A stretch of 39,629 bases of DNA from Candidatus Thalassarchaeum sp. (GTDB taxonomy: Archaea > Thermoplasmatota > Poseidoniia > Poseidoniales > Thalassarchaeaceae), in the NCBI GenBank assembly GCA_022451235.1, contig JAKUOA010000004.1:3366-42994 (forward strand), read 5' to 3'. Shown piece after piece: positions 11,209 to 37,758 of this stretch (within the stretch, counting starts at the first letter, position 1; each line of letters begins with the position of its first letter). The notes under the pieces were generated by a model. It was not told the origin of the DNA and did no database searches. It worked only from the letters and a program-made list of their open reading frames with translations. The translations under genes were made by a program, and so were the position numbers.

Positions 11209-11487
11209 TCACTCAAAATGTTCGTCGAATCTCCCTTCTTTCATTGCTTGTAATGCGGCCTTTGGCTCCATGCCTTCGACCTTAACTCGCATTGCTACGC
11301 AGGTTCCCATAACCTCGCGCGAGCGCGCGTATAGTGTTGCACCAGTCAAGCGATCTTTCTGCTTCTCAGCAACCTGCTTTACTTGGTCCATTGATAGGTT
11401 CTCAGTGGATGCATCCCAGCTTCCATTACACTTCTTCTGACCGAGGGTCTGAATAATCACATGAGGTGTTTCATTACGTGCTGACAT
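11209..11487 (-). CDS. rpl11: 50S ribosomal protein L11, C-terminal rRNA-binding domain only (92 aa)
   Basis: NLSMDQVKQVAE…REVMGTCVAMRVKVEG…EGRFDEHF matches the archaeal uL11 CTD, and the gene sits at the syntenic position between spt5 and rpl1. There is no GPPLGP N-terminal domain. Confidence 0.85.
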   Translation of the reverse strand: MSARNETPHVIIQTLGQKKCNGSWDASTENLSMDQVKQVAEKQKDRLTGATLYARSREVMGTCVAMRVKVEGMEPKAALQAMKEGRFDEHFE

Positions 11488-11573
11488 GCTCTTTACCCCC
11501 TACTGAAGTGCCTCGCCGACCTACTCTCCCTATTTGAGCGTGATGACGAACCTCCAATTTCTCCTGATTATGA

Positions 11574-12473
11574 TCACTCAACACGCTGAGTAACTCGAAC
11601 TTGATCAGCTCGTACTGTCAGAGCGACTGGTACAGCCGCTTCGAATAGCTCGACCGTAACTTCTTCCTTTGATTCTGTAACACGGATAACACGGGCTGCC
11701 TGACCTTTGAATGCGCCACCGCTGATTTCGATAATACAACCTTCCTCAATACCGGCTGTCGCCGCCTTAGGCTCTAGGTAGGAAAGTGTATTTTCCAGAG
11801 GTGAAACACCAGGTAGAACCTTTCGACAGTTCTTCAAGCGTGTTGTGGTCATTCCAGACATTCCAATTAATTTCTCGACATGGTGAAGTGCAGATGCCTC
11901 GACGAAAATATAGCCGCGTACATGTCCTGGAACCAATACTCCGAAGACTTCGTCTTGAATATCCTTTAGAGAACCAGTACCCGAGAGTCTAGCGCGAATT
12001 TCATTGGCAACATTCTCCTCCTGTCCGATACTGGTCTTTAGGATGTAAAGGAACGTAGCGACGTCTCCATACATGGCGTCAATCTGTGGAATTGAAAATC
12101 TCTCAGCACCAGTACCTTCGCTGGATTCGGATTCATAATGCCCGATGAAGGCAGGGTCAACCCAGCTGTGATTCTTGTAAATGGTTCGCGGACTGACCTC
12201 ATCAGTTTCGCTAATGAATAGCAAAGGAGTCACATCGTTCAGGCGATTTCCAAAGGCAAGACCTCTTGCTAGACCTGAACGGACATGTTGTAAAGCATCA
12301 GCCGGAATACCCGTGCATTCTGTAATTCTGGTTGTTACAGCATCGATATCTTCGGGGTCTCCAATACCGTACACACCATCCCAAGCACCAGGGAAATCAG
12401 CAACCTCGTCGGCACGCTGCATAATCAGGACCTTCTCGCCATGGCGAACGTAGACTACGAATGTATCAGACAT
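11574..12473 (-). CDS. spt5: transcription elongation factor Spt5 (NGN+KOW) with N-terminal Nudix-like domain
   Basis: C-terminal half: KTSIGQEENVA, RGYIFVEA and KOW ISGGAFKGQAARV…EEVTVELFEAAVPV. N-terminal ~140 aa: KVLIMQR…FPGAWDGVYG…ITECTGI. ATG 12473 follows a GAGGTGA SD. Confidence 0.9.
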   Translation of the reverse strand: MSDTFVVYVRHGEKVLIMQRADEVADFPGAWDGVYGIGDPEDIDAVTTRITECTGIPADALQHVRSGLARGLAFGNRLNDVTPLLFISETDEVSPRTIYKNHSWVDPAFIGHYESESSEGTGAERFSIPQIDAMYGDVATFLYILKTSIGQEENVANEIRARLSGTGSLKDIQDEVFGVLVPGHVRGYIFVEASALHHVEKLIGMSGMTTTRLKNCRKVLPGVSPLENTLSYLEPKAATAGIEEGCIIEISGGAFKGQAARVIRVTESKEEVTVELFEAAVPVALTVRADQVRVTQRVE

Positions 12474-12483
12474 ATTTCTCACC

Positions 12484-12750
12484 TCAAGAGCTAGTTAGCC
12501 AATCGAAGAAAACCGGTAGGGCGTTATCCATCAGCCAAAGCATGAAGAAGCCGATAGCACCTAAAACAAACATTCCAATTCCACAGACGATTACGGTTTG
12601 TCGAAATTCTTGTTTGGAGGGTTTTCTAGCCATCTTTAGGATACGAGCCATTGAGCCGGTTTGCACCCGGCGGACTCTCTCCTCTATGTCATCCTGCAAC
12701 CTCTGTGCAGTTTGCTCGATAGGACCAACATCTGAGTTCTCGATAGCCAT
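12484..12750 (-). CDS. secE: protein translocase subunit SecE/Sec61-gamma
   Basis: RILKMARKPSKQEF followed by a single TM helix; syntenic between ftsZ and spt5. Confidence 0.93.
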   Translation of the reverse strand: MAIENSDVGPIEQTAQRLQDDIEERVRRVQTGSMARILKMARKPSKQEFRQTVIVCGIGMFVLGAIGFFMLWLMDNALPVFFDWLTSS

Positions 12751-37293: not shown

Positions 37294-37758
37294 TCATTCC
37301 CTTAGCATATCCACGATATCCAAGTGGTCTGCGGCGACGGTATCTTTGGTCAACTCGTCGATTGGCACCCATGCAGCAGACACTGCGTCGTCCGCCCCTT
37401 TCGGTTCTGTATCAATGTCAGCATCTACGAGATAGAAAAGACCTACACAGTGTTTTCGAGGATCTCTACCAGGTGCACCTAGTACATGCAAAACTCTTGG
37501 GTTTAGGCCTTCTATTCCGGTTTCTTCCTGTAATTCACGTAGAACTGCATCTTCTGGGTCTTCTCCATAATCGACAAAACCTCCTGGAAATGCCCACAAT
37601 CCTTGCCATACTGCGGGGTCTGGACCACGTTCTATCATCAGTAATTCGAGTCCATTTTTTGTTTCCCGTGCCGCTACTGCGTCAACAGTGACCGACGGGC
37701 TATGATATCCATCTCTACCACATGTAGGACAACGCTTGGTGTTCGGTTCAGCTCCCAT
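37294..37758 (-). CDS. Nudix hydrolase (ADP-ribose pyrophosphatase-like) with N-terminal CxxC
   Basis: Intact Nudix box GGFVDYGEDPEDAVLRELQEETGI; PSVTVDAV, RDPR, ADDA. Confidence 0.92.
   Translation of the reverse strand: MGAEPNTKRCPTCGRDGYHSPSVTVDAVAARETKNGLELLMIERGPDPAVWQGLWAFPGGFVDYGEDPEDAVLRELQEETGIEGLNPRVLHVLGAPGRDPRKHCVGLFYLVDADIDTEPKGADDAVSAAWVPIDELTKDTVAADHLDIVDMLRE

Follow-up and report, generated by a model that had tools for sequence, protein, structure and literature searches.

Spt5/NusG is the only transcription factor common to all cellular life, and a 2019 review (PMC6391919) treats the archaeal protein as minimal, with two domains, NGN and one KOW. The same review gives examples of lineages that have added to the NGN core, namely domain insertions in some bacterial NusG proteins (domain II of T. 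maritima NusG) and the acidic N-terminus of eukaryotic Spt5. Another point of comparison is offered by NrtR and AraR, in which a Nudix domain with a degenerate box is used as a non-hydrolysing binding module, fused to a winged-helix DNA-binding domain and acting at promoters. Here, we analysed the spt5 gene located in a 39,629-nucleotide stretch of the Candidatus Thalassarchaeum sp. genome (assembly GCA_022451235.1, contig JAKUOA010000004.1, positions 3,366 to 42,994 of the forward strand; referred to below as the window). In its product the NGN and KOW domains are preceded by about 140 residues with a predicted Nudix fold, in which the catalytic residues, judging from the alignment with active relatives, are lost. 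The eukaryotic Spt5 N-terminus is disordered and T. maritima domain II is inserted within NGN, whereas in this protein a folded, apparently enzyme-derived domain stands ahead of NGN; like the eukaryotic N-terminus, it is acidic. No description of a Nudix-Spt5 architecture was found in the literature on Spt5/NusG in these archaea, most subscription journals being outside the search, and as far as we found, it is a genuine, previously undescribed variant of a known factor. Thalassarchaeum is placed in Candidatus Poseidoniales, and we infer that the order bearing the fusion is Poseidoniales (Marine Group II).

The gene, a pseudo-Nudix, NGN and KOW Spt5 of 299 aa plus stop, occupies positions 11574..12473; all genes and domains for which window coordinates are given in this text lie on the minus strand. 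It belongs to a single open reading frame (11574..12482) of 302 aa when read from a GTG codon, while the ATG at 12473 yields the product of 299 aa, beginning with MSDTF. Since M1 is invariant in 27/27 aligned relatives, the coordinates 11574-12473 (stop included) are correct, and the claim of the first-pass annotation of this DNA, a gene of about 299 aa in one frame, is borne out by the translation. The C-terminal half is readily recognised as Spt5. Pfam Spt5-NGN (PF03439) matches residues 142-212 (1.1e-11, 45 bits against a cut-off of 22.4), and the NCBIfam equivalog TIGR00405, "transcription elongation factor Spt5", covers residues 143-297 with 109.2 bits (cut-off 69.95). The Pfam KOW match over residues 249-275 is weak (0.004, 17.4 bits) and falls under its cut-off of 22.3, and the region lies within the TIGR00405 match. 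Solved archaeal Spt5 chains (147-163 aa) align to residues 142-297 only, with E values from 2e-23 to 4e-21. We thus assign the NGN domain with its linker to residues 141-232 (11778..12053) and the KOW domain to residues 233-299 (11577..11777). As in canonical archaeal Spt5 (3p8b_B, 9bct_G and 4zn1_A; 147-152 aa), one NGN domain is followed by one C-terminal KOW domain, the gene stands in the order secE-spt5-rpl11-rpl1-rpl10, it is present in a single copy, and the Spt4 partner is encoded in the same genome. The difference from the canonical proteins lies in the additional N-terminal part with its Nudix fold: since the Spt5 families and the solved chains are restricted to residues ~142-297, the extra ~140 residues, which the first-pass annotation had pointed out, are real.

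Sequence families gave little on this extra part. No Pfam family, PF00293 included, matched residues 1-140 alone at E<=10, and a search of solved-structure sequences with the whole protein returned nothing for this region. The sole whole-protein family hint for it, IPP isomerase TIGR02150 (E 0.15), was not adopted. An AlphaFold2 model of residues 1-140 was obtained with a mean predicted local distance difference test (pLDDT) of 88.5 and a predicted template-modelling score (pTM) of 0.84. Foldseek returned 383 matches to this model at E<=0.001, and all among the matches listed were Nudix proteins. Structural alignment with VIA-align gave Z scores of 13.9-15.6 across 113-127 aligned residues, with a root-mean-square deviation of 2.4 over 126 residues at the top of this range. 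The matches included NudI (Z 15.6), M. mazei MutT (15.5), the NrtR Nudix domain with ADP-ribose (3gz8, rank 3; 15.2), AraR (5bs6; 14.2), Ap4A/Ap6A hydrolases and RppH (13.9-15) and the MutY C-domain (13.9). A protein language-model look-up agreed, as 23 of the 30 nearest clusters were NUDIX. Since the structural matches are effectively tied over many Nudix subfamilies, the fold singles out no particular ligand. The likeness to NrtR and AraR consists of a Nudix fold with a degenerate box attached to a gene-expression protein, in our case as read from sequence and model; the fusion partner, however, is the NGN-KOW of an elongation factor and not a winged-helix domain.

The domain was searched against 1.84 billion representative proteins and 401 genomes of the phylum (Thermoplasmatota). 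Beyond close relatives, this search found a stand-alone Nudix family of ~130-140 residues (P0159-P0194), also from Thermoplasmatota; all nine members taken for comparison match PF00293 (9/9). When a profile of 26 N-domains of the order was compared with these nine relatives by hhalign, the match reached 99.25% (E 5.2e-20, 114 columns). The two groups can be aligned end to end, the C-terminal helix included, and have the structural invariants L16, R20, W31, G36, G67, P83 and W104 in common. Homology to recognised members of the Nudix superfamily (PF00293) is therefore established through the stand-alone relatives, while with the order-only profile no solved Nudix sequence scored better than E 0.11. 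When the active relatives were added to the profile, polyubiquitin chains were matched (E 3.6e-9), which we rejected as an artefact of summed short motifs (4.5 bits per repeat, per-domain E ~300); the multi-stretch matches P0139 and P0162 (4799 aa and 2460 aa) may be similar artefacts. Taken together, the models and the profile comparison indicate that residues 1-140 adopt the alpha/beta/alpha fold of Nudix proteins and share ancestry with active members, with the predicted Nudix-fold core at residues 1-110 (12144..12473). The first-pass annotation had read the N-terminal ~140 aa as Nudix-like, which the Foldseek and hhalign results support. It had also named an intact Nudix gene at 37294-37758, and this gene indeed matches PF00293 (1.7e-24). 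The nearest relatives of the Spt5 domain, however, are the other, stand-alone family and not this gene.

The closest active relatives (L014-L016 and L018; P0170 and P0175) either stand alone or have a fusion partner, which is an aconitase-X swivel domain (PF01989) in some and an IF-2B-family domain (PF01008) in others. They offer no pointer to a ligand for the Spt5 domain.

The canonical Nudix box reads G-x5-E-x7-R-E-U-x-E-E-x-G-U, with metal-binding glutamates. We compared the corresponding alignment columns between 26 members of the order and the nine active stand-alone relatives. In the latter, six polar positions are invariant: four glutamates of the box region, a histidine on strand 6 and a glutamate before strand 7. 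The box of the Spt5 domain (residues 36-56, GIGDPEDIDAVTTRITECTGI; 12306..12368) is two residues shorter than that of the stand-alone relatives, and most of the six positions are changed in the domain. The glutamate of G-x5-E is replaced by Asp in 18 members, Asn in 3, Ser in 3, Ala in 1 and Thr in 1; the first glutamate of the box helix by Arg49 in 25 and Cys in 1; and the third by Cys in 13, Ala in 9, Ser in 2, Thr in 1 and Val in 1. Only the second box-helix glutamate (Glu52) is largely kept (Glu in 20, Asp in 4, Gln in 2). The strand 6 histidine has become Thr in 14 members, Ala in 4, Val in 3, Met in 2, or Ile, Lys or Glu, and the glutamate before strand 7 is Ile in 11, Arg in 9, Leu in 5 and Val in 1. 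Four of the six polar positions, two metal-binding glutamates among them, are replaced in 26/26 members, and a fifth, that of G-x5-E, is changed conservatively (Asp in 18/26). What persists of the box of an active hydrolase is the flanking Gly residues, a single Glu (E in 20/26) and, at the end, G-[IL]. Compared with the stand-alone family, whose box is intact, the domain has given up the glutamates of the box together with the conserved His and Glu. The motifs quoted in the first-pass annotation, VVYVRHGEKVLIMQR, GIGDPEDIDAVTTRITECTGI and HSWVDP, are all present as written, and the breaks it had described at the RE and EE of the box recur in all relatives examined. At the same time, thirteen order-specific positions are fixed (R10, D32, G33, G38, R49, G71, L78, Y99, D106, Y135 and G136) or nearly so (F5 and V46). 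Since metal-binding and catalytic residues are replaced while the fold is kept, the domain is, on the evidence of these columns, a pseudo-enzyme; its catalytic residues appear to be lost, and the residue pattern is that of a fold that was kept and took on another job, not that of decay.

The fusion is a property of the whole order. The N-domain was matched in 36/36 genomes of the source family and in 58/58 of the second family of the order (94/94), nearly always in open frames of ~290-390 aa; the two exceptions (G297 and G324) lie at contig ends. All of the fetched loci (32/32) give one tblastn alignment spanning both halves of the protein. The best 120 database relatives, which come from many independent contigs, are 288-299 aa long with 100% query cover; their sources are Poseidoniales, Thalassarchaeum or unclassified archaea, and the names given to them are just "Spt5" or "NusG". 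Among the Spt5 frames listed for the sister family of the class, lengths are 185-197 aa, and N-domain matches fall in 165-aa frames; of these, L019 was read and proved to be a stand-alone Nudix gene whose box is intact. No inserted or deleted letters occur at spt5 in the contigs of three metatranscriptome runs and of an independent DNA run. A contig of 750 nt from an RNA library, in which DNA carry-over is possible, covers positions 11528-12275 with 2 differences and no gap, and thus passes across the domain junction near 12054. X14, the independent DNA run, gives two contigs that meet at 12067-12079, and the junction is not bridged with 31 letters on each side. An assembly-created fusion, which the first-pass annotation had named as a finding that would overturn its reading, is, as far as sequence data go, excluded by the 32 continuous loci and the junction-crossing contig.

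The ratio of non-synonymous to synonymous distances (dN/dS) was calculated by the Nei-Gojobori method on codon alignments, for 9 pairs with usable synonymous distance. The Nudix core had a median of 0.09, and NGN-KOW one of 0.04; these medians include three saturated pairs (L003-L036, L006-L031 and L039-L031), which are to be disregarded, and our reading rests on the other six, where the Nudix core gives 0.01-0.17. These values indicate that, at the level of the coding sequence, the Nudix domain is under purifying selection.

The best AlphaFold2 model of the full-length protein has a pLDDT of 83.4 and a pTM of 0.68 (pLDDT 66.7-71.8 for the other four models). The Nudix core is followed by a variable acidic loop, residues 111-128 (12090..12143), whose length and sequence vary among relatives and part of which appears to be disordered: pLDDT drops below 50 at residues 115-124 in the full-length model and at 117-124 in the N-domain model. 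The last Nudix helix (residues 129-140; 12054..12089), which is also the last helix of the stand-alone relatives, leads into NGN strand 1. In the full-length model the helix spans residues 131-138 and the strand residues 141-147, and 26/26 members have both Y135 and G136 at the junction. Since strand 1 begins two residues past the helix, the domain is closely tethered to NGN with no long linker. Complex prediction between the N-domain and NGN gave scores of 0.00 and 0.31 (mark 0.32), which we used neither for nor against docking. A further variant is seen in P0144 (385 aa), where ~85 additional N-terminal residues with a Cys-x2-Cys...His-x4-His pattern stand ahead of the pseudo-Nudix, NGN and KOW domains.

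We propose that an ancestral stand-alone Nudix hydrolase gene may have fused to the N-terminus of Spt5 at the base of the order. The Nudix fold would then have been kept under purifying selection while its metal-binding and catalytic residues were replaced, giving rise to a pseudo-enzyme. NGN would carry this domain onto the elongating RNA polymerase, where it presumably works by binding and not by hydrolysis. The likeliest contact surface would be the remodelled region of the former active site with its new invariant residues R10, D32, G38, R49, Y99 and D106. We consider it probable, though by no means certain, that the protein is the sole housekeeping Spt5 of the cell with a fused, selected pseudo-enzyme Nudix domain that acts by binding. 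Several observations weigh against this. The analyses presented here pointed to no binding partner or ligand, and the placement of the domains in the full-length model is only moderately confident (pTM 0.68). Arg49, situated beside the retained Glu52 and Asp39, could form an internal salt bridge, so that the cleft would be plugged and not binding. The acidity of the N-domain disfavours general nucleic-acid binding. Moreover, some Nudix-superfamily enzymes are active with incomplete boxes, and on sequence alone residual activity is possible.

If the domain acts by binding, what it contacts may be a small ligand. In that case the dead cleft would bind NAD, ADP-ribose, NpnN or an RNA end bearing a cap or a triphosphate, and elongation would be coupled to a metabolite or RNA 5'-end signal; that the N-domain contacts a phosphate-bearing small ligand or nucleotide, as an NrtR-like sensor, is by analogy a possibility that we hold tentatively. 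It is consistent with the NrtR Nudix domain with ADP-ribose (3gz8) being among the tied best matches, with RppH with RNA and the Ap4A/Ap6A hydrolases close, and with the location of new invariant residues (Arg, Tyr and Asp) in or next to positions of the former active site. These residues, however, would seem to fit a phosphate-ligand pocket and an arginine filling the metal site equally well; the structural matches tied over many subfamilies indicate no ligand, and the weak reach of the order-only profile towards solved Nudix sequences (E 0.11 or worse) does not help this reading either. Its geometry is also unfavourable. NGN spans the DNA cleft of the polymerase with its N-terminus over it, Spt4 faces the upstream DNA, and KOW lies nearer the RNA exit. 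Since the N-terminus of NGN lies over the DNA cleft, sensing of RNA 5' ends is less obvious than the first-pass annotation had assumed. Judging from textbook structures, an N-terminal domain would more readily reach DNA, the non-template strand, Spt4 or proteins of chromatin than an RNA 5' end. A stronger version, in which Spt5 of Marine Group II is ligand-gated, i.e., binding of ADP-ribose, NAD or a dinucleoside polyphosphate in the dead cleft alters the engagement of RNA polymerase by Spt5, appears rather improbable.

The partner may instead be a macromolecule. As a docking or scaffold domain, it would touch either DNA at the upstream fork or a protein, be it a polymerase subunit, Spt4, a component of chromatin or some other factor. 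A contact at the polymerase cleft, with a protein or a nucleic acid as partner, seems to us as likely as a small ligand, and we hold it just as tentatively. One argument comes from elsewhere in the phylum; over the phylum as a whole, Spt5 was found in 391/401 genomes. We inspected 15 Spt5 loci outside Poseidoniales, chosen for long frames and therefore biased, which shows that additions exist and not how frequent they are; locus L055, which has an N-domain match and holds no Spt5, was read alongside them. Eleven of the 15 (L043-L049 and L051-L054) encode a beta-rich N-terminal domain of ~130-160 aa, unrelated to the Nudix domain. Three others (L050, L056 and L058) have long acidic low-complexity N-terminal extensions of 135-256 aa with Glu/Pro/Lys repeats and an isoelectric point (pI) of 4.05-4.23, and one has a short acidic tail. 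Unrelated additions thus occur at the same position in other Thermoplasmatota, and it would seem that the position is exploited more than any particular fold; different N-terminal additions, however, need not have a common function. The N-domain of the order is itself acidic in 27/27 relatives (pI 4.05-4.66), with NGN-KOW near neutral, and can be likened to the acidic N-terminus of eukaryotic Spt5. As a functional clue this is weakened by the proteome being acidic too (median pI 4.89 over 36 open reading frames of the window), and the acidity is unexceptional for this organism. The MutY C-domain (Z 13.9) is a Nudix fold that reads DNA, which would suit a docking role, but no partner was pointed to.

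The beta-rich domain itself has a recurring APEW...LWDS...APKGAR...GD pattern and is seen in several other families of the phylum. No Pfam family over cut-off was found for it, with weak Ig-like hints from NPCBM_assoc, FixG_C and Ig_VWA7 (atlas scores 0.84). The acidic extensions of L050, L056 and L058 call to mind the acidic stretch with which eukaryotic Spt5 begins.

The other explanations fare worse. That the N-domain is without a specific partner and its arginine plugs the old metal site seems unlikely. Still less probable is an auto-inhibitory gate, which would keep the clamp-binding face of NGN covered as long as no signal arrives, as the C-domain of RfaH does. The short, direct passage from the last Nudix helix to NGN strand 1, with its invariant Y135 and G136, would allow for this, and as the genome has only this Spt5, gating would affect all transcription; but we see no evidence for an interface, and a constantly needed housekeeping factor is an unlikely target of masking. 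We doubt even more strongly that the domain is still an enzyme, hydrolysing a substrate next to the transcribing polymerase by means of a non-canonical active site. One box glutamate is largely kept, Asp occupies the G-x5-E position in 18/26 members, and Nudix-superfamily members that act with incomplete boxes are known. Against this, four of six polar positions, including two metal-binding glutamates, are replaced in all 26 members, the box is two residues short, and PF00293 gives no match even at E<=10. Finally, two adjacent genes joined by an assembly or gene-calling error can be dismissed, since 32/32 loci from separate genomes are continuous, the N-domain is present in 94/94 other genomes of the order, and three RNA runs and one DNA run show no indels.

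In the window, spt5 stands in the minus-strand order FtsZ, SecE, Spt5, L11, L1, L10, which is the usual archaeal arrangement and agrees with the synteny claimed in the first-pass annotation. The secE gene (12484..12750; PF00584 SecE, 5.9e-6) lies directly upstream, its stop 10 nt ahead of the spt5 ATG. The genome, 88% complete, contains one Spt5 locus only; a second, short Spt5 paralogue was looked for without success in this 88%. A gene for Spt4 is present on another contig (44.4 bits), which rules out the idea that the extra domain replaces Spt4. In the second family of the order (loci L021-L033), a conserved basic insertion of 9 residues, RDPxARRGL (alignment columns 222-230), is located between NGN and KOW; it is missing from the family of the source genome.

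Directly downstream of spt5 lies a gene for uL11 (11209..11487; 92 aa; PF00298) that encodes the C-terminal RNA-binding domain only. The L11 N-terminal domain, PF03946, was not found in the source genome, and it was found in 0/36 genomes of the order searched, versus 160/165 other Thermoplasmatota genomes and 14/14 controls. The uL11 gene itself is present in 28/32 fetched loci, in frames of 93-127 residues. In the genomes searched, loss of the uL11 N-terminal domain coincides exactly with the Spt5 fusion. No report of an order-wide loss of this domain was found in a limited literature search, with most subscription journals outside it.

Thus, a whole order of very abundant, uncultured ocean archaea has as its only Spt5 a three-domain protein with a selected and, by its residues, catalytically dead enzyme-derived module. 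Since the database names of these proteins are simply "Spt5" or "NusG", the extra domain has been left unannotated. With neighbouring lineages having other additions at the same position, the N-terminus of NGN may serve archaea in general as a place for attaching lineage-specific elongation control, in a way similar to eukaryotes. A link between the Spt5 fusion and the loss of the uL11 domain, if there is one, could mean that the handover from transcription to translation has been rewired in these organisms. If Spt5 were indeed ligand-gated, it would constitute a genome-wide, metabolite-controlled elongation checkpoint in abundant ocean archaea.

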